Source: a virus. From it: a stretch of DNA of 64,000 nt. Numbering within the stretch: the first letter of the stretch is position 1; each line of letters begins with the position of its first letter. Location: positions 38,717 to 102,716 of IMG/VR virus record IMGVR_UViG_3300035698_018106. One strand, 5' to 3'. Shown one piece after another: positions 6 through 38,738 of the stretch. The notes beneath the pieces are model-generated. The model was not told the DNA's origin. It was given only the letters and a program-made list of their open reading frames with translations, and searched no databases. Made by a program: the position numbers and the translations under genes.

Positions 6-2609
6 ATGGCTCAACATGGTAATGATATATTAGCCAAAATATTAGGTGTTTGTATTAAAATTAATAAAAAATTAGATGGAAAGCCATCTTCTGGGACAGA
101 AGATGAAGGTAAGAGCGATAAAGGCACGGGCATGCTTTCTGATATGTTTGGAAAATCTAAAATAAAAGAAGCTATAAAAGGTGAAAAAGTTATTAAAGGA
201 ATATTTAAATCATTATCCGGATTTGCTAAAATTGGTGTCAAACCAAAGAGAATTACTGCAACCGCCAAAGCATTAGATTTATTAATGGGGGTAATTATAA
301 AAACAGGTGAAAATTCAAAAACTATATATAGAGCTATTAATTTATTTGATTCTATGTCTAAAAGTTTAAAAGGAATAAATGAATTCATGTCTGGGTTTGC
401 TAAATTATTATTCTCATTTGGAGCTTCTATTTTATTAATTGCTGGGTCTATATGGTTGGCAGGAAAATTGCTAAAAACTGATTCACCTGGAGGGACTATT
501 ATGGTTATCGCCGGCGTGATTTTAGGATTTATCGCATTAGTATACCTTTTAGGAAAAGCTGGAAAAGCAACTAAAAGCGGAGTATATACAGCCAAAAATA
601 TGGGTAAAGCATTAATGTTTCTTTCTGGAGGATTATTAGCATTTGTTATTTCATTACAATTAATTTCTGGTATTATGGGGGCAGGACAAGGTCCTAAAGC
701 TATAGGATTAGGCATATTAACAATAGTAGGAGTTATAACTGCCTTTGCAGGGATATTTGCATTATTAGGATTTGTTGGCGCTGTTATTAAAAAAGGTACA
801 GGTGTTGCTGTTGGGATGGCTATAGGTATGATTGCATTATCTGCGGGAGTATATTCTATTGCATTAGCTTCTAAAGCTCTTACTGGTTTAGGAGATGATG
901 GTGTGGCAGTTAACAAAAAAGGAGAAAAGAAAGGTAGATTTGGTCAAATGATGTCTAATATTGGCCCTGGTTTAGGATTATTCGGTATTATTTTAGTTTC
1001 GTCTGCATTATTATTTGCGGCTTTAGGCGTATTTTCTCCACTTATTATTGCTGGGGCAGTTACAGCTATGGCCATTGGAGCATCATTAGTTATACTTGCA
1101 GCATCAGTTAAAAAAATGATGGAAATAACTAGTAAATTAGATAAAGATACTGTACAAGAATCCATAACAATATTAACTAGTTCTGTTCTTACTGGTATGA
1201 TTGATGGTATTATGATGGCATTAAATCCTAATGGGAAAAAAGGTCTAAGAGGATTAGGGGCTAGTATGAAAAATACAGCGATATTATATAATGGTATTGC
1301 GTTATTAATGGGTGTATCGGTCTCATTATCAATGTTTGCTAAAGCATTAACTGCATTTGCAAACCTTGGAAATATGAGAGTTATTGAAAGTTATGATGAA
1401 AAAACAGGAAAACCAAGATTTGGAGAAACTGTTGATATAAGAGGTGTAGGAGATACAATTAGAGATTCTATATCTAGTTTCTTAATTGGATTAATAGATG
1501 CTACATCTGGATTATCTAGAAGACAAGCTAAAGCTATTAAAAAAATGGGTAGAGCTCTTACTGGAAGAAGAGGAATATTAACAGCAGTTGTTCAATTTGC
1601 TGATGTACTTACTACCTTTGCAAAATTTGGAAAAAAAGGTGAAATTGGATATGTTGAATTAGTTCCTAATGGTACAGATGAAGATGGGAATGCTAAATTT
1701 AAACAAGTACCTAAAACTGTTAAAATTGAAACTGTAGTAGGACATATAGGTAAATCATTTACTATATTTGTAAAAGAATTAGCTGCATTATCTAAAGATT
1801 TTGAATTTGGTGGTAAAGAAAAAAGAAAATTAGGTAGATTATCAAAAGCTCTTACTGGTAGAAAAGGTATTCTCACTCCTATAATTGAATTCACTAAAGC
1901 TATTGATGCATATGCAAAATATGGAAAAGATGGAACTATACAAAATTATAAAAGAGGAGCAGATGGCGGATATATATTAGATGATAAAGGTGATCTAATA
2001 CCTGTGGGTGCTCCTGTAAGTATTAGCCAAATTGCTAAAAATACTGCCAGAATGATAACAGGATTTTCTACTGCCTTAGCAACAGAATTAGAAACTGCTG
2101 ATACAAAATCAGGTAAAAAAGCAGGTAAAATGTTGGGCAGTTTCTCGGATATGATTGAAGAAATATCTTTATTAGGAGAGCATACACAAGGCTTAGATAG
2201 AACTGCAGCATCTTTAAATAATTTAGCTACAAGTATAGGAAAACTAGTTCAACAATTAAATGGTTTAGATAGTGGTAAATTAAATGGTTTAGCAGAAGTA
2301 GCTAAAAATAATAAATCTATTGGAAGTAGAGCATTTGGTGTTCATAGTAAAACTATAGCTAAAGGAAATTCAGACCAATCTGAACCTAAAACTTCATTCT
2401 TTAATAGATCAGATAATAAACAAACAAACCCACAAACTTCTAGAAGTAATATAGGTGATAAAAAGCTATATGAATTAATGGATAGTATTAACAAGAAAAT
2501 GTCTATTATGCCTGAACAGGTAGGGGCAGCAACATCTAACGCTTTTAAAAATACACAATTTACTTTTGAATTTGCAACTGATAAATCTGGTGTATTAAGT
2601 ACTGAATAA
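6..2609 (+). CDS. Large membrane-spanning Gly/Ala-rich protein with C-terminal internal repeats; tape-measure-like or ejection protein. May be truncated at the window start.
   Basis: 867 aa. Many hydrophobic G/A-rich segments. Three copies of a KALTGR(R/K)GILT...F(A/T)K(F/Y)GK repeat. No catalytic motifs. Confidence 0.25.
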   Translation: MAQHGNDILAKILGVCIKINKKLDGKPSSGTEDEGKSDKGTGMLSDMFGKSKIKEAIKGEKVIKGIFKSLSGFAKIGVKPKRITATAKALDLLMGVIIKTGENSKTIYRAINLFDSMSKSLKGINEFMSGFAKLLFSFGASILLIAGSIWLAGKLLKTDSPGGTIMVIAGVILGFIALVYLLGKAGKATKSGVYTAKNMGKALMFLSGGLLAFVISLQLISGIMGAGQGPKAIGLGILTIVGVITAFAGIFALLGFVGAVIKKGTGVAVGMAIGMIALSAGVYSIALASKALTGLGDDGVAVNKKGEKKGRFGQMMSNIGPGLGLFGIILVSSALLFAALGVFSPLIIAGAVTAMAIGASLVILAASVKKMMEITSKLDKDTVQESITILTSSVLTGMIDGIMMALNPNGKKGLRGLGASMKNTAILYNGIALLMGVSVSLSMFAKALTAFANLGNMRVIESYDEKTGKPRFGETVDIRGVGDTIRDSISSFLIGLIDATSGLSRRQAKAIKKMGRALTGRRGILTAVVQFADVLTTFAKFGKKGEIGYVELVPNGTDEDGNAKFKQVPKTVKIETVVGHIGKSFTIFVKELAALSKDFEFGGKEKRKLGRLSKALTGRKGILTPIIEFTKAIDAYAKYGKDGTIQNYKRGADGGYILDDKGDLIPVGAPVSISQIAKNTARMITGFSTALATELETADTKSGKKAGKMLGSFSDMIEEISLLGEHTQGLDRTAASLNNLATSIGKLVQQLNGLDSGKLNGLAEVAKNNKSIGSRAFGVHSKTIAKGNSDQSEPKTSFFNRSDNKQTNPQTSRSNIGDKKLYELMDSINKKMSIMPEQVGAATSNAFKNTQFTFEFATDKSGVLSTE

Positions 2610-2703
2610 AACATCATAAATTAAATCTTTCACATCAATTTTACATATTAATATTAATAAGATTTGATATAGAATGCTATTATTCTTCAAATAATCCAAA
2701 CTT

Positions 2704-2937
2704 ATGAAAATTTTAAAATTTATTCTAATTTTTTGTTTAATTACTTTATCTTCATGTGCTACTGTTAGATACAGAAAAGAATATAATGAAAAAAGAGGAT
2801 TAATGATGTTAGAAGTACATGAATATCCAAGAAATCACAAGATGTATGAAAAAACAAAAAAGATAAGAAAAACTAAGAAAAAATTAAAAAAAGAAAATAA
2901 ACATCCAAAAAGAAACTATAAATCTTATAAAAGATAA
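2704..2937 (+). CDS. Small lipoprotein with a lysine-rich tail
   Basis: Signal peptide MKILKFILIFCLITLSSC with lipobox Cys, followed by an extremely basic K-rich C-terminus. Confidence 0.4.
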   Translation: MKILKFILIFCLITLSSCATVRYRKEYNEKRGLMMLEVHEYPRNHKMYEKTKKIRKTKKKLKKENKHPKRNYKSYKR

Positions 2938-2940
2938 AAA

Positions 2941-4017
2941 ATGATAAAAAATATACATACAGGAGAAGAATTTCCAGTAGAATGGACTTTAGATAAAACT
3001 GCAAATTTAAATCCAACCGATCTGACATACCATAATCTAATGGTAACTATATTAAAAGAAGGTTTATGGAAAGAAAATAGAACAGGTGTTAAAACACTTT
3101 CTATATTTGGCCCTCAAGTTAAATTTTCAAATGTAGGAGAAAGATTTCCATTACTTACAACTAAGAAAATATTTACTAAAGGGGTTATTGGGGAATTACT
3201 TTGGTTCTTAGAAGGATCTACTGATAAAAATAGATTAAGAGATCATTATGGTACTAAAATTTGGGAAGAATGGAATGGTCCAAATCCAAAATTTGATGGA
3301 GATATGGGACCTATTTATGGTAACCAATGGGTAAATTGGACGTATAATCATATTTATGATGAAGGAGAAGAAGTTGAATTGGAAGGTGAAGATGGTTTTA
3401 TTGTTTCAGAAAAGAGATCAATTAATCAATTACAAGGCATAATCGATACTCTTAAGACTAACCCAGATGATAGAAGAATGATTGTTTCCTGTTGGCATCC
3501 AGAGCAACTCAAAGATATGGCTTTACCTCCATGTCATTGGTCTTTCCAATTTTATACTAACGAATTATTAATAGATGAGAGATTTAGATTGTGGTTTGAT
3601 GAGAACAAACCTAATCGTGATGTTGTTGATTATTGGGATGGATTAAGTAAAGTAGAAAAACATATAATGTTAGATGAAGCAGGTATAAAGAAAAGAAGCC
3701 TAAGTCTTCTTTGGAATCAACGTAGTGTCGACACAGGTTTAGGACTACCTTTTAATATTACATCTTATGCTTTATTGTTAATGATGGTAGCTCAACAAAC
3801 CGATATGATAGCAGGTAATCTAATTGGTAATTTAGGAGACACTCATATATATGAGGATCATATGGATCAATTATGCAACCAGCTTACTAGAGAATCTACT
3901 ACTCTTCCCGTCATAAAAATCGATAAACAAAAAGATTTATGGAGCTATAAACCAGAACATTTCCATATAGAAAATTATAATCCACACCCTTCTATTAAAA
4001 TGAAAGTATCTGTTTAA
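2941..4017 (+). CDS. thyA: Thymidylate synthase (ThyA family) with a roughly 45-aa insertion
   Basis: Motifs RFPLLTTKK, GELLWFL, ALPPCH..FQFY, GLPFNITSYALL, HIYEDH and a C-terminal NYNPHP. Asn present in PFN(I)TSY, consistent with a dUMP substrate. Confidence 0.85.
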   Translation: MIKNIHTGEEFPVEWTLDKTANLNPTDLTYHNLMVTILKEGLWKENRTGVKTLSIFGPQVKFSNVGERFPLLTTKKIFTKGVIGELLWFLEGSTDKNRLRDHYGTKIWEEWNGPNPKFDGDMGPIYGNQWVNWTYNHIYDEGEEVELEGEDGFIVSEKRSINQLQGIIDTLKTNPDDRRMIVSCWHPEQLKDMALPPCHWSFQFYTNELLIDERFRLWFDENKPNRDVVDYWDGLSKVEKHIMLDEAGIKKRSLSLLWNQRSVDTGLGLPFNITSYALLLMMVAQQTDMIAGNLIGNLGDTHIYEDHMDQLCNQLTRESTTLPVIKIDKQKDLWSYKPEHFHIENYNPHPSIKMKVSV

Positions 4018-4061
4018 ATTAGTAAAAGTTAAAAGCACGTCCTAGAATATATAAAATAAAA

Positions 4062-4805
4062 ATGGATGTTATTTATTTAATAGAAGATGAAATTTCAGGA
4101 TTAAAATATTTGGGGTCTAAGAAAAATTGGCAAGGGGAAAATAGCTATTGGGGTTCGCCCTCTTGTAAAAACAAAAATAGAAAAAAATATAAATTACAAC
4201 AAGACTGGAAAAATCATTTTAAAGAGCATAAAGATAGCTTTAAATTTAATATATTAAAACATTTTGAAAAAATATCCATAAAAAAATTATTATTAGAAGA
4301 AAAAAAGCTACAACTAGAATATGATGTTTTAAATAGAAATGATTTCATCAATGCCGGATTAGCCGGAGGACATGGATTTATGGGAGAAGGTGAAGAAAAT
4401 CCGGTGTTTGGAAAAAAACATAGAAAAGATTCCATAAATAAAATGTCTATAAAGCAAAAAGAAAATGGTAAAAAATTATCTAAATTATATAAAGGGAAAA
4501 CATATGAAGAAAGATGGGGGGATGAAAAAGCTAAAATAGCAAGAAAAAAATTATCTGAGCATTCTAAAAACCGAACAGGAGATAAAAATTCTTTTTTTGG
4601 AAATAACCACAGTGAAAAAACTATACAACAAATAAAAAATAAGCAGAGGGGAAATAAACCTATTAATACTAAAAAGGTTTACATTGAAGGAAATATTTAT
4701 AACGGACTTAATGATGCATATATTGCAACTAATGTAAAGCCTACAACTATATGGTATAGGATTCATTCAAAAAATAAAAAATTCAAAGAATATAAATATA
4801 TTTGA
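4062..4805 (+). CDS. GIY-YIG homing endonuclease, I-TevI-like
   Basis: N-terminal VIYLIEDEISGLKYLGS (GIY...YIG). DWKNHFKEHKD resembles I-TevI RWKRHFKDLEKG. Two NUMOD3-like repeats (NPVFGKKHRKDSINKMS and NSFFGNNHSEKTIQQIKNK). C-terminal helix-turn-helix-like segment. Confidence 0.85.
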   Translation: MDVIYLIEDEISGLKYLGSKKNWQGENSYWGSPSCKNKNRKKYKLQQDWKNHFKEHKDSFKFNILKHFEKISIKKLLLEEKKLQLEYDVLNRNDFINAGLAGGHGFMGEGEENPVFGKKHRKDSINKMSIKQKENGKKLSKLYKGKTYEERWGDEKAKIARKKLSEHSKNRTGDKNSFFGNNHSEKTIQQIKNKQRGNKPINTKKVYIEGNIYNGLNDAYIATNVKPTTIWYRIHSKNKKFKEYKYI

Positions 4806-4809
4806 TATT

Positions 4810-5097
4810 TTTCTTGGCGGGCCATTCAATATAGCTTCTTATGCTTATTTGTTATTAATGATGGCTCAAGAAGTAGATATGATTCTCGGAGATTTGATTA
4901 TTTCTGCTGGAGATGTGCATATATATGAGAATCATTTAGAATATATTTATAAACAATTAGCTAGGGAATCTTCTTCTATAGAACCAACAGTTGTTTTAAA
5001 TAAAGATAAAGGTTTTTGGGATTTTACATCAGAAGATTTTGTAACAAATGGATATAATCCTCATCCAAATTGGAAAAATGTACCAATAGCTGTATAA
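4810..5097 (+). pseudogene. Duplicated 3' fragment of thyA (exon-2-like). It has no proper ATG; the track ORF starts at TTG 4849.
   Basis: Encodes FLGGPFNIASYAYLLLMMAQEV...GDVHIYENH...GYNPHPNWKNVPIAV, which aligns with the last ~95 aa of the upstream ThyA. Begins 5 bp after the endonuclease stop codon. Confidence 0.75.
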
Positions 5098-5111
5098 AAT
5101 AAACAATTTAA

Positions 5112-5297
5112 ATGTATAATATTGAATGGTTAAATACTTTTTTCATATATGGATCATATGTTATTGGATTAATAATAGTTGTATTAGTTTTCAAATTATC
5201 AATAAAATTAAATAAAGATATAAAAAAACTCGATAAATCATCTAAAGAAAATATGATTAAATATATGAGACAAACATCTAAATATAATAAAAAATGA
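5112..5297 (+). CDS. Small membrane protein
   Basis: 61 aa with one hydrophobic helix. Confidence 0.3.
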   Translation: MYNIEWLNTFFIYGSYVIGLIIVVLVFKLSIKLNKDIKKLDKSSKENMIKYMRQTSKYNKK

Positions 5298-5539
5298 AAG
5301 TAGAATTACATATACTTAATAATGAAAAGTCTAGTGGCGAAAAAGTAGAAGAATATAGTCCGTATTCAAGACGCAAAAGTTATAAAACTGATGATAATTT
5401 CTTAGATGATGATATTATATCATCTCCGATAAGTCATAAATTAGATAGATTATTACTAAATGATATACAAATCACATCTTTATATCAAATAGATAAAATA
5501 ATTAAACTATTAGAAAATGCAAAACCTTGTTTTAAATAA
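5294..5539 (+). CDS. Hypothetical protein
   Basis: ORF only. Confidence 0.3.
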   Translation: MKVELHILNNEKSSGEKVEEYSPYSRRKSYKTDDNFLDDDIISSPISHKLDRLLLNDIQITSLYQIDKIIKLLENAKPCFK

Positions 5540-6098
5540 AATGAATAAAATGAATAAAATAGAAGATTTAGTTAATATTATTACTATAGAAGGAGATCAT
5601 AAAACTATACAATATGTTGATTATGGAATAGATAAACAAGCAAATTCGCTAGGAGCATATGGAATTAGTTTGTTTGAAAAATATGTTGAAATTTCTAGAT
5701 TTAGTAAAGATATAAAAGATGAATCATATATTTCTGATTATATAGATAAAATTCAAGGTATCTTGAGTACTTATAACAATACTTTAGATATTAATGATAA
5801 GGTTAGACGTAATATATCTAAACTAATATCAAGTGCTTCAACAATAGCACATGAAGGTAGAATAGGTCCTGGCACCACAATACTAATAAATGAAAAGAAT
5901 TTTGAATCATATTCATTACACAATATAAAAAGAATTTTTAACGTGATATTCGTGGATGAATTAAATGATATAATAATTACTAGGAAAAATGGATTAGATC
6001 AACCAGGTATTATTTTAGTTAAAAATGATGAAAATTATATGTTTACCACATTAGGATTTTATCCAGATAAACAATTTATAAAAATTAATTTAAATTAA
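5517..6098 (+). CDS. Hypothetical protein
   Basis: 193 aa ORF. No recognised motifs. Confidence 0.4.
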   Translation: MQNLVLNKMNKMNKIEDLVNIITIEGDHKTIQYVDYGIDKQANSLGAYGISLFEKYVEISRFSKDIKDESYISDYIDKIQGILSTYNNTLDINDKVRRNISKLISSASTIAHEGRIGPGTTILINEKNFESYSLHNIKRIFNVIFVDELNDIIITRKNGLDQPGIILVKNDENYMFTTLGFYPDKQFIKINLN

Positions 6099-6100
6099 AT

Positions 6101-6925
6101 ATGGCAATAAAGAAGTTAAGTTTAACTATAAATGCATTTGATGCATCAGAGTTATTAGAACCTCTTATTACAGAGATTAGAGATCAAGTTGATCATGTGG
6201 CAGCAATTTACCAAAAACTTTCATATTGGCAAAATCCCATGGATCGAGTTGATATGGATGAACTTCATAGATTAAAAAAGATTGGTTTAATAGATGAACT
6301 TATTGAATTTAAACCTAATTTTGCTAAATATTCTAGAGAACAAGAATGTGAGAAGCGAAATATGGGTATTGATCTAATGAAACAAAACGGATCATCACAT
6401 ATACTAAATATTGATTCTGATGAATTTTATAATGCCGATCAATTTAGATATGCAAAAGATAAAATTAATAAAATGGGATATAACGTAACATATTGGTCAT
6501 ATGTTAACTATTATAGAGATTTTGATCATTATCTTGTATATCCATTTAGACCATTTGTTCAAGGTATTCATTCTACATTCTTTAAGTATACATATCAAGG
6601 TCCGGCTCCTGGTCCTACTGATCCAACAAGACGAATTAATAATCCTTCTGGTTTAGGACAATATATTTTTGAGGATAATGAAATTAGAATGGCTCATGGC
6701 GCTTGGATTAGAAAGGACATTAGGAAAAAACTAGTTAACTGGAGTGCTAAAGATCATTTCAAAAAAGAGCTAATTGATGCGGCTGTAGAAAGATGGGAAA
6801 ATTGGAAAGAAGGAGATAATGCAGTTATGTTATTTAATACTCCTGAAAATCAAGTAAGAGTTAACAAATTAGAAACTAGAATTCATGATTTTGAAGTACC
6901 ATGGAATAAAAAAGGAGAATCTTAA
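6101..6925 (+). CDS. Hypothetical protein, possibly a DxD glycosyltransferase-like enzyme
   Basis: 274 aa with an ILNIDSDEF (DxD-like) segment. The assignment is weak. Confidence 0.35.
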   Translation: MAIKKLSLTINAFDASELLEPLITEIRDQVDHVAAIYQKLSYWQNPMDRVDMDELHRLKKIGLIDELIEFKPNFAKYSREQECEKRNMGIDLMKQNGSSHILNIDSDEFYNADQFRYAKDKINKMGYNVTYWSYVNYYRDFDHYLVYPFRPFVQGIHSTFFKYTYQGPAPGPTDPTRRINNPSGLGQYIFEDNEIRMAHGAWIRKDIRKKLVNWSAKDHFKKELIDAAVERWENWKEGDNAVMLFNTPENQVRVNKLETRIHDFEVPWNKKGES

Positions 6926-7862: not shown

Positions 7863-9527
7863 TTATTCGTCGTAATTTAAACACATATATTCTACTTGTA
7901 CAGGAAATGTTTGAGGATTAAAGATATAAAAACCTCCAATAAGATTTTTTGTATAATAATCAGGATGATCAGATGCAGTAAATCTAGATGAAAATGGTCC
8001 TACTTTAAACCACATATTATGTGTATTAATATAATCTAAGTATTCTGAAGCGCTCATTGTTTTTTCATCTCCACAGCCATTTCTTCCTACATCAACTATT
8101 TTCATAAATCTTTCATAATATAATGAAGAATCTAATGTATATGAAAGTGATGCATCCATTGTACCATTTATATATATAGTGGTACAATTTTCAAGAGAAG
8201 TTTTATCATCTAAATCTGTATTATAAAGAGTACAATTAATTATAGATGAATCATATATTTCAGAAGTATAAATACTTGCATCTGAAATAGTTGTATTATT
8301 TAATGATGTATCATGTATTACTCCGCCTTCAATATAAATTCTTTCACATGAAACATCATTAGTCCATAATCCCGGAATTACTTCAAAAGCATTAACCCAT
8401 GAATTTTCTAAACTAGAATCTATCACAATAGAATCTTTATTAATATGACTACTTATAACAGAAACATTTTGTATTGATGAATCTTCAAATAAACTTTTAT
8501 TTGTATAAGACGTTCCTATTCCAGATTCATATATTGAACAATTAATAATTGAAGCATCATACATATATGAACCATATAATGAACAATCTACAATATTAAT
8601 GCCTATGGATGGTTCAGATATTATATCTACATTATAAAAAGCAGCATCGCTTGGATCTATTGCAATATCATCTACAATAACAGGATATACAATAGAAGGA
8701 TCAAATGAAATAGATTTATATTCGCTAACATCATCAATAAAATTATCAACTTGTATTGATTCATAAACTTCAAAAGGACTATCTACATGATTCATATAAA
8801 GCCATGACGAATATTTACATGTGTCGCGTGGATATAATGTTTTTAACATATATCCTAACATAGCTCCATTTGGGTATTTAGATGCCGGTAACATACCATC
8901 AACATTTTCTGTTAATGGATATATTTGTTGGATATTTACACCATCTATTATAATAGAAGGAAATGGTGAATTTATATCCATAGATGCATCAATTATTCTA
9001 AGTGACACATTTGATATATCATAGTCATAACCAACATTATTTGCTTTGAATGTAAATGAACTTGGATCATATGTAGCTGATATATCTAATGTTGTATTAG
9101 ATAGAACAATATTTAATGCATCATCAATATCGATATTTGCATCATTACTTGAACTAGCATCAATATTAATATCGAAATTCTTAAAATTATAATAATAATT
9201 AGCTGAAAGATCAATCATCATAAAAAACTCTTGTTTATCATATCCAAAATTAGGAATATCAAAAAGTTGAGTTCTATAAAGTAGTCCTCTAGATATTCCA
9301 GGAACATATGTTACTTCTCCACTTTGTAAAGTTTTTTTCTCTCCTGTCCAACTAGTAACAGGAATTGATATATCCGAAAGATCCATAAATTGTACTATAT
9401 CGCTCCCGACTACTACACCTGCTCCATCATCAATAAATTTAAATTCTGCATCATCTCCTGCGTTTGCACATGGTGCTAATCCAGGATTGACATAATCGTT
9501 AGAAGGATTATTAAATACATCTGACAT
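7863..9527 (-). CDS. Tail fibre or tailspike-like protein with parallel beta-helix repeats
   Basis: 554 aa. N/S/D/I-rich repeats (DSSI, DASI, NCS/T IY), typical of beta-helix fibres. Confidence 0.5.
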   Translation of the reverse strand: MSDVFNNPSNDYVNPGLAPCANAGDDAEFKFIDDGAGVVVGSDIVQFMDLSDISIPVTSWTGEKKTLQSGEVTYVPGISRGLLYRTQLFDIPNFGYDKQEFFMMIDLSANYYYNFKNFDINIDASSSNDANIDIDDALNIVLSNTTLDISATYDPSSFTFKANNVGYDYDISNVSLRIIDASMDINSPFPSIIIDGVNIQQIYPLTENVDGMLPASKYPNGAMLGYMLKTLYPRDTCKYSSWLYMNHVDSPFEVYESIQVDNFIDDVSEYKSISFDPSIVYPVIVDDIAIDPSDAAFYNVDIISEPSIGINIVDCSLYGSYMYDASIINCSIYESGIGTSYTNKSLFEDSSIQNVSVISSHINKDSIVIDSSLENSWVNAFEVIPGLWTNDVSCERIYIEGGVIHDTSLNNTTISDASIYTSEIYDSSIINCTLYNTDLDDKTSLENCTTIYINGTMDASLSYTLDSSLYYERFMKIVDVGRNGCGDEKTMSASEYLDYINTHNMWFKVGPFSSRFTASDHPDYYTKNLIGGFYIFNPQTFPVQVEYMCLNYDE

Positions 9528-9585
9528 ATATAAGACAATTATTTTATTTATTTATTCACTTGAAAAGATAATATAATGCTTTAAA

Positions 9586-9613
9586 CTAAAAAAGAGGCAC
9601 TTGCCTCTTTTTA
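9586..9613. terminator. Rho-independent terminator
   Basis: AAAAAAGAGGCACTTGCCTCTTTTT hairpin with A and T runs. Confidence 0.65.
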
Positions 9614-9928
9614 TATTTCATCAAAATTTCTATGTTCACCTTTATTAATAGGAATACCTAAATTATATCTATTTCCCAACCTAGATGGTTGATTATTTTT
9701 CTTTTTTAATCTTTCTATAGCTTTTACATCTACTACTTCCACTCCATCTTTAACCATACTATTATATTGGTCTTCTTTAGGTGCTGGGTGAATATCTACT
9801 ATAGTATCTTCCTTTAAGATAGATGGATCAATATTATCTACCTCTTTTACTTTTGGATCATTCTTGAGCCTCTGAAGCATTTCTGTACCCTTTGAAACTT
9901 TATTAATTTCATCTAAGTTTTTTATCAC
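9611..9928 (-). CDS. Hypothetical protein
   Basis: 105 aa ORF. Confidence 0.4.
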   Translation of the reverse strand: MIKNLDEINKVSKGTEMLQRLKNDPKVKEVDNIDPSILKEDTIVDIHPAPKEDQYNSMVKDGVEVVDVKAIERLKKKNNQPSRLGNRYNLGIPINKGEHRNFDEI

Positions 9929-10023
9929 CTTTGGTTTAGGCGCCTTTTTCTTAAGAGGATCAACCCGACGTTTTTTACGAGTTTTTTTAGGGATAGAGAA
10001 TTCCTCAGGATTATCTACTACCC

Positions 10024-38699: not shown

Positions 38700-38738
38700 A
38701 TGACAAAAAAGGCTAGAGTTTTCTCTAGCCTTTTTAAA
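38700..38738. terminator. Terminator-plus-promoter-like cassette
   Basis: ATGACAAAAAA-GGCTAGAG-TTTTC-CTCTAGCC-TTTTT. Compensatory stem changes relative to the 29640 copy. Confidence 0.65.

Follow-up and report, generated by a model that had tools for sequence, protein, structure and literature searches.

How does a gene for a homing endonuclease come to lie between a complete thymidylate synthase gene (thyA) and a second, partial copy of the 3' end of the same gene? The question is raised by positions 2941 to 5097 of the window, the 64,000-nucleotide (nt) stretch of viral DNA analyzed here (positions 38,717 to 102,716 of IMG/VR virus record IMGVR_UViG_3300035698_018106); positions below are those of the window, and the parts of the locus, from thyA to orf61, are on its plus strand. 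To our knowledge, homing endonucleases are thought to enter conserved coding DNA safely only within self-splicing introns or inteins, and otherwise to stay intergenic. We consider it probable that a cassette, composed of a foreign thyA 3' part, a 44-nt spacer and an I-TevI-like homing endonuclease gene (HEG), took the place of the functional 3' end of the resident gene at this locus.

The first gene (2941..4017) encodes a ThyA of 358 amino acids (aa) that covers PF00303 over its full length (E 5e-94). Its TAA stop codon (4015-4017) is followed by the spacer (4018..4061), whose motif AAAAGCACGTCCTAGAATATATAAAATA is kept in the window and in the related loci L002, L029 and L030 (related loci carry L numbers and their proteins P numbers), and then by the HEG (4062..4805, 247 aa), which starts at an ATG of its own, 44 nt downstream of the thyA stop, and is neither in phase with thyA nor fused to it. 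A preliminary description, made from the DNA alone, had placed both genes at these coordinates and had reported a diverged second thyA 3' end with about 60% nt identity to the first; all of this was confirmed. The fragment (4804..5097) consists of 97 codons and a natural stop in a reading frame other than that of the HEG, with nothing of thyA 5' of its first, Asp codon. It matches the equivalent portion of the intact gene (3730-4017) at 61.1% nt identity (176/288), against a mean of 33% and a maximum of 42% for shuffled sequence. Its translation is 49% identical to the intact ThyA (BLASTP E 2e-29) and aligns to positions 173-262 of the 266 in PF00303 (E 2e-25), so the alignment proposed in the preliminary description reveals clear homology and not a chance resemblance. 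The ENA contig L001 (1248 nt) is identical over its whole length to window positions 4004-5251 and covers both junctions.

The fragment had been described as starting five base pairs after the HEG stop, at the codons for FLG|LPFN, and hence exactly at the insertion position of the T4 td intron. On the T4 genome the td site does lie between FLG and LPFN, with exon 1 ending ...CAA CGC TCA GTA GAT GTT TTC TTG GGT (…QRSVDVFLG) and exon 2 starting CTA CCG TTT AAT (LPFN…). In the window, however, homology to thyA opens at 4804, overlapping the HEG stop, with GAT ATT TTT CTT GGC|GGG CCA TTC AAT, in which GAT is the Asp codon of D-I-F-L-G-G-P-F-N; the fragment start is therefore 15 nt 5' of the td-site equivalent. 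The right junction is resolved to a single nucleotide, within the T|GA of the HEG stop (4803..4804). Because homology to the HEG block of L027 ends at 4803 and homology to six genes of the allele class termed B below begins at 4804, the stop codon was built across the junction: the closest HEG ends …TAT CTT TAA, and that of the window …TAT ATT T|GA TAT TTT TCT TGG. Microhomology at the junction is at most 1 nt.

A peak of identity at the 5' edge of the fragment had been read as a co-conversion tract next to a cleavage site, and this reading fails against control pairs, which are equally or more similar there and display the ordinary conservation of thyA. Identity between the window copies is 53, 73, 67, 57… % per 10-codon block, compared with 63-73, 60-67 and 50-90% for the first three blocks of class A versus class B genes taken from different genomes. 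In the window pair, similarity is lowest over the first 10 codons (53%; third positions 20%), and the target site is, if anything, more diverged than expected between the two copies.

The ThyA C-termini of this phage group fall into two classes. Class A is characterized by WNQRSVDTGLGLPFN … IDKQKDLWSYKPEHFHIENYNPHPSIKM.V.V, and class B by MNIRSWDIFLGGPFN … LNK.KGFWDF.PEDF…HPNWKNVPIAV. The intact thyA of the window ends as class A and the fragment is class B. Upstream of its end, the intact protein changes affinity: residues 1-208 have their best match in P0063 (78%), the product of a class B gene, and residues 263-358 in P0062 (85%, with P0063 at 45%), while the fragment is again closest to P0063 and its locus L035 (85% aa, 76% nt). 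The DNA is partitioned in the same way. L035, which encodes P0063, matches the window at 2876-3560 and again at 4809-5114, being the best DNA match to the resident-type 5' part of the gene (2941..3560; 74% over 714 nt, ending at 3560). L036, which encodes P0062, matches 3687-4053, which includes the foreign class A 3' part (3687..4017; 78.6% nt from 3687), and L027 matches 3937-4803 at 83.5%, joining the thyA 3' end to the HEG. Between the two main parts is a 38-aa insertion (about 3592-3662; …WFDENKPNRDVVDYWDGLSKVEKHIMLD…) that is 79% identical in nt to its counterpart in the long-type thyA of L022 and L052, a third class (C) with which it shares the motif KPNRDVVDxWD. Since the insertion matches a third thyA class, the intact gene is a three-parent mosaic, in which all breakpoints are positioned just 5' of the putative HEG target.

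The agreement between the partition identities and the DNA blocks suggests that the resident gene consisted of the 5' part found in the window and of the fragment. The downstream neighbor points in the same direction. In the HEG-less loci L009, L012 and L028, homologues of orf61 (5112..5297) lie directly after thyA, 8-26 nt past its stop; orf61 of the window lies 14 nt past the fragment, which therefore holds the native position of the thyA 3' end. Compared with the functional gene of L035, the fragment has a ratio of nonsynonymous to synonymous substitution (dN/dS) of 0.084, with no relaxation, so that it would either have been displaced recently or be subject to renewal. The fragment is thus most readily interpreted as the displaced 3' end of the resident thyA, and the class A 3' part as having come with the HEG.

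This interpretation keeps one half of the earlier proposal, that an endonuclease-mediated event left its footprint in the thyA segment targeted by I-TevI, and reverses its direction. The intact thyA had been taken as resident and the fragment as donor DNA resembling exon 2 that had arrived with the endonuclease, a version that draws on the direct abutment of fragment and HEG. We regard it as very unlikely. It is the fragment (85% identical to P0063), and not the intact 3' part, that matches the gene type of the 5' part of the window gene; the fragment retains the native spacing to orf61; the block conserved in L027 joins the HEG to the intact 3' part and not to the fragment; and class A is the allele type linked to HEGs at other loci. 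That the locus is a chimera assembled from two co-occurring strains, or a tandem duplication within the genome that later diverged, is extremely improbable, even though the window is probably metagenomic and the sole other record of the junction is identical to it. The junction lacks any shared repeat that might have led an assembler astray, and at least eight contigs, drawn from JGI, ENA and IMG/VR assemblies, have the same architecture. A recent duplication within the genome is ruled out, since the copies are 39% different, are saturated at synonymous sites and each belong to a different allele class of other genomes.

Given the relationship of the HEG to I-TevI and its location in the same thyA segment, the locus might instead descend from a td-type group I intron that has lost its ribozyme core. 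No match to RF00028 was found in positions 2600-5600 at E-values up to 10 (Rfam, E-value mode), in line with the earlier remark that an intron core is absent. The same mode recovered the T4 td intron at E 2.5e-8; the gathering-threshold mode misses the T4 td intron too, so the E-value mode alone is informative. The ORF flanks measure just 44 nt and 0 nt, the junction is 15 nt away from the td site, and the upstream thyA is complete, so nothing needs splicing. Rfam detected no group I intron in L038, L039 or L045 either, which have the same layout, or in L005, L007 and L011. Descent from a td-type intron, which had been offered as one origin of the locus, thus finds no support and is very unlikely.

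The product of the HEG is an I-TevI-like protein encoded free-standing, as had been proposed, and its nuclease activity is predicted from this relationship. A profile of the 12-member family aligns to I-TevI residues 4 to 237 with 98.7% probability (hhalign). Among solved structures, sequence search returned the I-TevI DNA-binding domain 1I3J as the sole match (phmmer E 4.7e-9). The AlphaFold (AF2) model of the protein (predicted local distance difference test score, pLDDT, 83) has as its best two Foldseek matches in the PDB the two domains of I-TevI, 1I3J and 1LN0, both with prob 1.00. The match to the catalytic domain, 1LN0, has a target-normalized template modeling (TM) score of 0.63 and E 0.02, and the model displays the GIY-YIG alpha/beta fold. 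The C-terminal DNA-binding domain, a NUMOD3 helix and a helix-turn-helix, is present (PF07460, E 4e-6; PF20987, E 4e-4, below cut-off), and PHROG 314, 'homing endonuclease', also matches (E 6e-15).

The catalytic residues of the GIY-YIG type are conserved in part. V-I-Y5 and Y16-L-G18 are invariant in both the 12- and the 16-member family sets and align to Y6, Y17 and G19 of I-TevI, thereby supplying the GIY and YIG tyrosines, and the invariant E80 aligns to the catalytic E75. The equivalent of Arg27 is missing: the position is occupied by a variable E, D or G, with no conserved Arg nearby, the invariant residues being K20 and K21 instead. The invariant N97 aligns to I-TevI N87, three residues off the conserved N90. 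No Cys cluster that could form a linker zinc finger occurs in the HEG product, whereas the distant relatives P0046 and P0055 have one. The family is under purifying selection (dN/dS 0.09-0.27; 0.16 for the window HEG versus that of L027).

The class B target DNA is uniform (AAT ATT CGT TCN TGG GAT ATT TTC TTA GGN|GGN CCA TTT AAT), and the HEG-linked alleles depart from it at many positions between -27 and +3, including the target-site region of the intact window copy (3703..3771; WNQRSVDTGLG|LPFNITSYA); in the class C lineage FLG is changed to ACG. All four loci with a 247-aa HEG and a visible target are class A-type and the eight without a HEG are class B, with L036 (no HEG, class A, and a class B remnant downstream) as a further locus, counts that are only indicative as the loci are phylogenetically non-independent. 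The I-TevI motif CAACG, at -27..-23, is present in the class A copy of the window and absent from class B, the presumed target, and the cleavage rules would therefore differ from those of I-TevI. Class B alleles with a TCN Ser codon all have C-N-T-G-G at -20..-16. Cleavage in the manner of I-TevI at this motif would produce an end 1 nt from the junction, a coincidence of about 1 in 20 that is suggestive only.

The comparison of related thyA loci that had been recommended earlier turned up HEG-less, HEG-only and HEG-plus-fragment arrangements. The gene order tape-measure-like gene - thyA - (HEG) - orf61 - … - p274 is conserved in 18 IMG/VR loci. A single-sequence HEG query of IMG/VR gave one distant match and an alignment query was needed to find more members; those added by the alignment-based scan mostly belong to a 284-aa subfamily. 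The HEG lies directly 3' of thyA with no fragment in L002, L027, L029, L030 and the P0033 contig, and L042 also lacks a fragment. The full order of thyA, HEG and thyA 3' fragment is also present in L038, L039, L040 and L052, and the HEG is followed by a fragment in L041, L045 and L046, in which the upstream thyA is cut off or partly held at the contig end. L036 keeps a remnant but has no HEG. The layout recurs in at least eight other metagenomic phage contigs, and its host genes represent different thyA lineages (class C, bacterial-like and GC-rich). In L038, L039 and L045 the fragment again begins at the HEG stop, at about -4 and -21 from the td-site equivalent. Every fragment (9/9) reads through to a natural stop, except in L039, where the frame stays open as far as the contig end.

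These relatives also show that the block moves. In L041, L046 and L052 the HEGs are separated by a synonymous divergence (dS) of 0.24-0.27 and the fragments by dS 1.3-2.2 (dN/dS 0.08-0.24), so the HEGs were shared recently and the fragments separated long ago under purifying selection; one cassette lineage has therefore entered different resident genes. Between the window and L027, the block of thyA 3' end and HEG is 83.5% identical (HEG dS 0.61) and the flanking p274 69%, with saturated synonymous sites. Between L052 and L042, identity is 75% in the thyA 5' part, rises to 86% and returns to 75% in p274, and the 86% tract starts 43 nt 5' of the Asp codon and extends 9 nt beyond the HEG stop. 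High-identity tracts of this kind are expected from break-initiated gene conversion extending from the target through the HEG, and they show that the block of thyA 3' end and HEG spread horizontally, and recently.

We propose that the resident class B thyA was cleaved by an endonuclease expressed from the genome of a co-infecting donor phage. The cut would lie in the DNA for the active-site loop R-S-W-D-I-F-L-G-G-P-F-N, the same segment that is recognized by I-TevI. The left broken end would then be repaired by homologous recombination on the donor thyA, a repair that would copy the target-resistant class A 3' end and the HEG, and the right broken end (the resident thyA from the Asp codon on) would be joined directly behind the HEG stop. 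Two origins are conceivable for the right junction: illegitimate end-joining, as in one-sided homing, or pairing with a corresponding fragment that the donor already carried. The outcome would be a working hybrid thyA, the HEG and an orphaned resident 3' end left in its native place before orf61. The phage itself encodes a UvsX/RecA-like recombinase, which we count as recombination machinery for such an event. The analysis shows the mosaic gene, the one-nucleotide junction, the resident origin of the fragment, the recent spread of the block and the recurrence of the layout; the cleavage activity, the position of the cut and the way in which the right junction formed are inferred.

Several points weigh against this replacement by a cassette. 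The left boundary is no clean two-parent crossover, and the class C segment at 3592-3662 requires at least one further event. No relative of >90% identity with an empty site was found, and donor and recipient were assigned by way of 74-85% relatives. L001, the sole other record of the exact junction, has the same sequence and could derive from one and the same sample. In three junction types the HEG stop is exactly the right junction, a coincidence not predicted by random end-joining. Unrelated ORFs separate the HEG from the fragment in L040, L041, L046 and L052. The Arg27 equivalent is not conserved, the Pfam GIY-YIG matches are below threshold (SegE_GIY-YIG, E 4e-4; GIY-YIG, E 0.14), and both the endonuclease activity and the cut site are deduced from footprints, namely the truncated target copies and the high-identity tracts.

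The exact coincidence of HEG stop and junction is accommodated by a refinement of the cassette reading, and no exclusive rival to it, in which a discrete mobile element would have two homology arms. The element would comprise the thyA 3' end, the spacer and the HEG, with the HEG stop as its right end, and the downstream fragment would serve as an 'exon 2' arm that pairs with the recipient thyA 3' end at each homing; the junction would be inherited and the fragment renewed from the functional gene each time. Consistent with this, the HEG stop abuts the fragment in the three junction types (window, L038 and L039/L045), the L039/L045 junction retains 18 identical nt despite saturated synonymous sites, the 9/9 fragments are open to a natural stop or the contig end (L039), their dN/dS is low, and conserved blocks always end at the HEG stop. 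In L041, L046 and L052, however, the block ends at the HEG stop and unrelated ORFs precede the old fragments, so that the fragment is no arm there; a fragment is missing altogether from many HEG-positive loci (L002, L027, L029, L030 and L042); and the window fragment has no tract of raised identity near the junction. The two-arm version is therefore possible but doubtful. We would raise only tentatively the more general idea of a class of intron-free mobile elements, undescribed in phages, in which an HEG cassette carries its own target-resistant 3' end for the essential-type gene that is invaded and the displaced end becomes the next homing arm, and possibly a non-cleavable binding site for the endonuclease. 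Were this so, such an element could spread through active-site coding DNA with no need for splicing.

The arrangement has counterparts outside phages. A hybrid of atp6 and ORF360 in Allomyces macrogynus was reportedly described by Paquin in 1994. The C-terminal duplications that accompany mobile ORFs (mORFs) of fungal mitochondria appear, by analogy of layout, to be the closest match to the window. In these, a foreign C-terminal gene part and an endonuclease ORF have been inserted and the native C-terminal part is kept downstream, and the native remnant groups with close relatives and the inserted part does not, as in the window. Mitochondrial mORFs with inserted C-terminal gene parts are known for atp6, atp9, cox2 and nad3 of Glomus and atp6 of Allomyces (Beaudet 2013, PMC3630166). 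The window differs in its phage host and in the gene, thyA; in having the endonuclease as a separate ORF after a stop codon and a 44-nt spacer, where the fungal endonuclease is fused in phase; and in that its HEG is an I-TevI homologue located in I-TevI's own target segment. A phage report of an HEG combined with a duplicated gene 3' end was not found by full-text literature searches, nor in Barth 2023 or the 2010 T4 review, which is not proof that none exists. The arrangement of an endonuclease plus a replacement 3' end is thus known in fungal mitochondria, with the phage version not found in the literature searched.

I-TevI itself, in the td intron, is an end-to-end homologue of similar length (247 aa for the window HEG versus 245 aa) with the same combination of a GIY-YIG-type N-domain and a NUMOD3/helix-turn-helix DNA-binding domain, and the conserved coding segment for the thyA active site is presumably the target of both. 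The window HEG is distinguished from it by the lack of an intron, of a zinc finger and of an Arg27 equivalent, and by a junction 15 nt 5' of the td site. Intronless homing of T4 SegF, SegG and MobE similarly involves an intergenic HEG beside its target gene, with flanking markers co-converted and a target-resistant allele inherited with the HEG. Inheritance of a resistant neighboring allele, as befits a free-standing HEG, is found here in the conserved block of thyA 3' end and HEG and in its linkage to class A. Free-standing I-TevI-like genes beside td have already been annotated in Acinetobacter T4-like phages, where there is no duplication: in the cultured phages 133 (L056 2102-3830) and Apostate (L057) the I-TevI-like HEG is oriented convergently with td, the 3' end of which it overlaps by ~23 nt. 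The DNA-binding domain of these HEGs is the closest GenBank phage match to the window HEG (37-41%, aa 106-247). Unlike the window, neither the Seg/Mob nor the Acinetobacter phage cases leave a duplicated part of the target gene.

Two further systems resemble single steps of the proposal. One-sided, illegitimate double-strand-break repair has been reported in T4 td intron homing (Parker, Belisle and Belfort 1999, via PMC2988022). As proposed here, homology is used on one side and the other junction forms with no homology after limited degradation; that system was an engineered plasmid-phage one, and in the window the product would have arisen naturally and become fixed in the genome of a phage. 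In Aeromonas phage Aeh1, nrdA is split by mobE (PMC2988022), another free-standing HEG within a gene of nucleotide metabolism. Both pieces of Aeh1 nrdA are needed, whereas in the window a complete gene has been restored by the replacement 3' end and the downstream piece is redundant.

If the proposed replacement is correct, the locus and its relatives would represent a third route in phages, whereby an endonuclease arrives together with a resistant new end for the gene that it cuts. The locus would also be a natural record of the position of the break and of the DNA copied, in which three allele classes have contributed to one thyA and the breakpoints lie shortly upstream of the target site. 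Stages of a life cycle can be suggested, from fresh invasion (window, L038 and L039) through separation and erosion of the remnant (L040, L041, L046 and L052) to loss of the HEG (L036). Class B as the target and class A as the immune allele would provide a testable pair for an I-TevI relative that has neither a zinc finger nor Arg27. Gene callers can be expected to report such remnants as short 'thymidylate synthase' proteins, as was observed here.

A number of other features of the related thyA loci were noted. L036 (10001-11659) carries a class A thyA (P0062, 493 aa) followed, 7 nt past its stop, by a 56-aa class B remnant, with no HEG, and appears to represent a later stage, after deletion of the HEG and of the 5' portion of the fragment. 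The L036 thyA also has an in-frame insertion of ~180 aa at EEW|…|GPIYGNQW, with a WLGMMKRCY motif, which could be endonuclease or intein-like. Elsewhere, thyA is interrupted around aa 140-159 and aa 186-193 in L011 (2645-4578), L005 (4045-6468) and L007 (4400-6555), and the gap in L005 holds an HEG-like ORF; Rfam gave no group I intron for the interruptions in L005, L007 and L011 at E up to 0.01. In this phage group, invasion of thyA seems to have occurred at no fewer than three distinct sites. In L035, the closest relative with a pre-invasion-like arrangement, a different endonuclease gene of the GIY-YIG/NUMOD3 type (9406-9966, 186 aa) lies upstream of thyA, between it and the tape-measure-like gene.

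At the L039 (1340-1380) and L045 (975-1015) junctions of HEG stop and fragment, 18 nt (GATTAGTTGCGATTTGGG) are identical, in a setting where the HEGs and fragments are just ~74% identical with saturated synonymous sites. Four short ThyA C-terminal proteins (P0002 and P0006-P0008) were considered as further fragments; three of them were rejected, as contig-end truncations or for an in-frame stop (L031, L033 and L034). L032 (1-200) contains a class B thyA 3' part, from HWSFQFY, preceded by aldo-keto-reductase-like sequence in another frame, and represents either another truncated thyA or a chimeric contig.

The spacer that precedes the HEG start in the window (4018-4061), L002, L029 and L030 has the form AAAAGCACGTCCTAGA(A)TATATA(AAATA) and contains TATAAATA, which resembles a T4 late promoter. 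Its reverse complement, ATATTCTAGGAC, is loosely similar to the class B target ATATTTTCTTAGGAGGACC, recalling the I-TevI operator. A scan for sigma-70 promoters and terminators gave nothing above shuffled expectation.

The window belongs to an AT-rich (27.6% GC) group of uncultured myoviruses and has a T4-like portal, the UvsX/RecA-like recombinase and a topoisomerase II; no close phage relatives were found in GenBank, where thyA matches extend over 70-120 nt only. Between the tape-measure-like gene and thyA, the window has a 77-aa ORF (2704-2937), the N-terminus of which (MKILKFILIFCLITLSSC…) resembles that of a lipoprotein and the tail of which is very basic; in relatives, thyA comes directly after the tape-measure-like gene. 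The ORF after orf61 begins MKVELHILN (window 5294-5320), and the ORF 2 nt past the HEG stop of L002 begins MKVQLHILN (L002 3458-3484); the two proteins are otherwise unrelated, and a recombination breakpoint may be positioned there. A 193-aa ORF with no Pfam or PHROG match (5517-6098) occupies the slot between orf61-like genes and p274, in which L027, L028 and L035 have a dihydrofolate reductase (DHFR) gene. The conserved neighbor p274 (6101-6925, 274 aa) belongs to no Pfam or PHROG family; it is 68-84% identical across the phage group, and its GenBank phage homologues are limited to the Prevotella Lak megaphages (37-39%).

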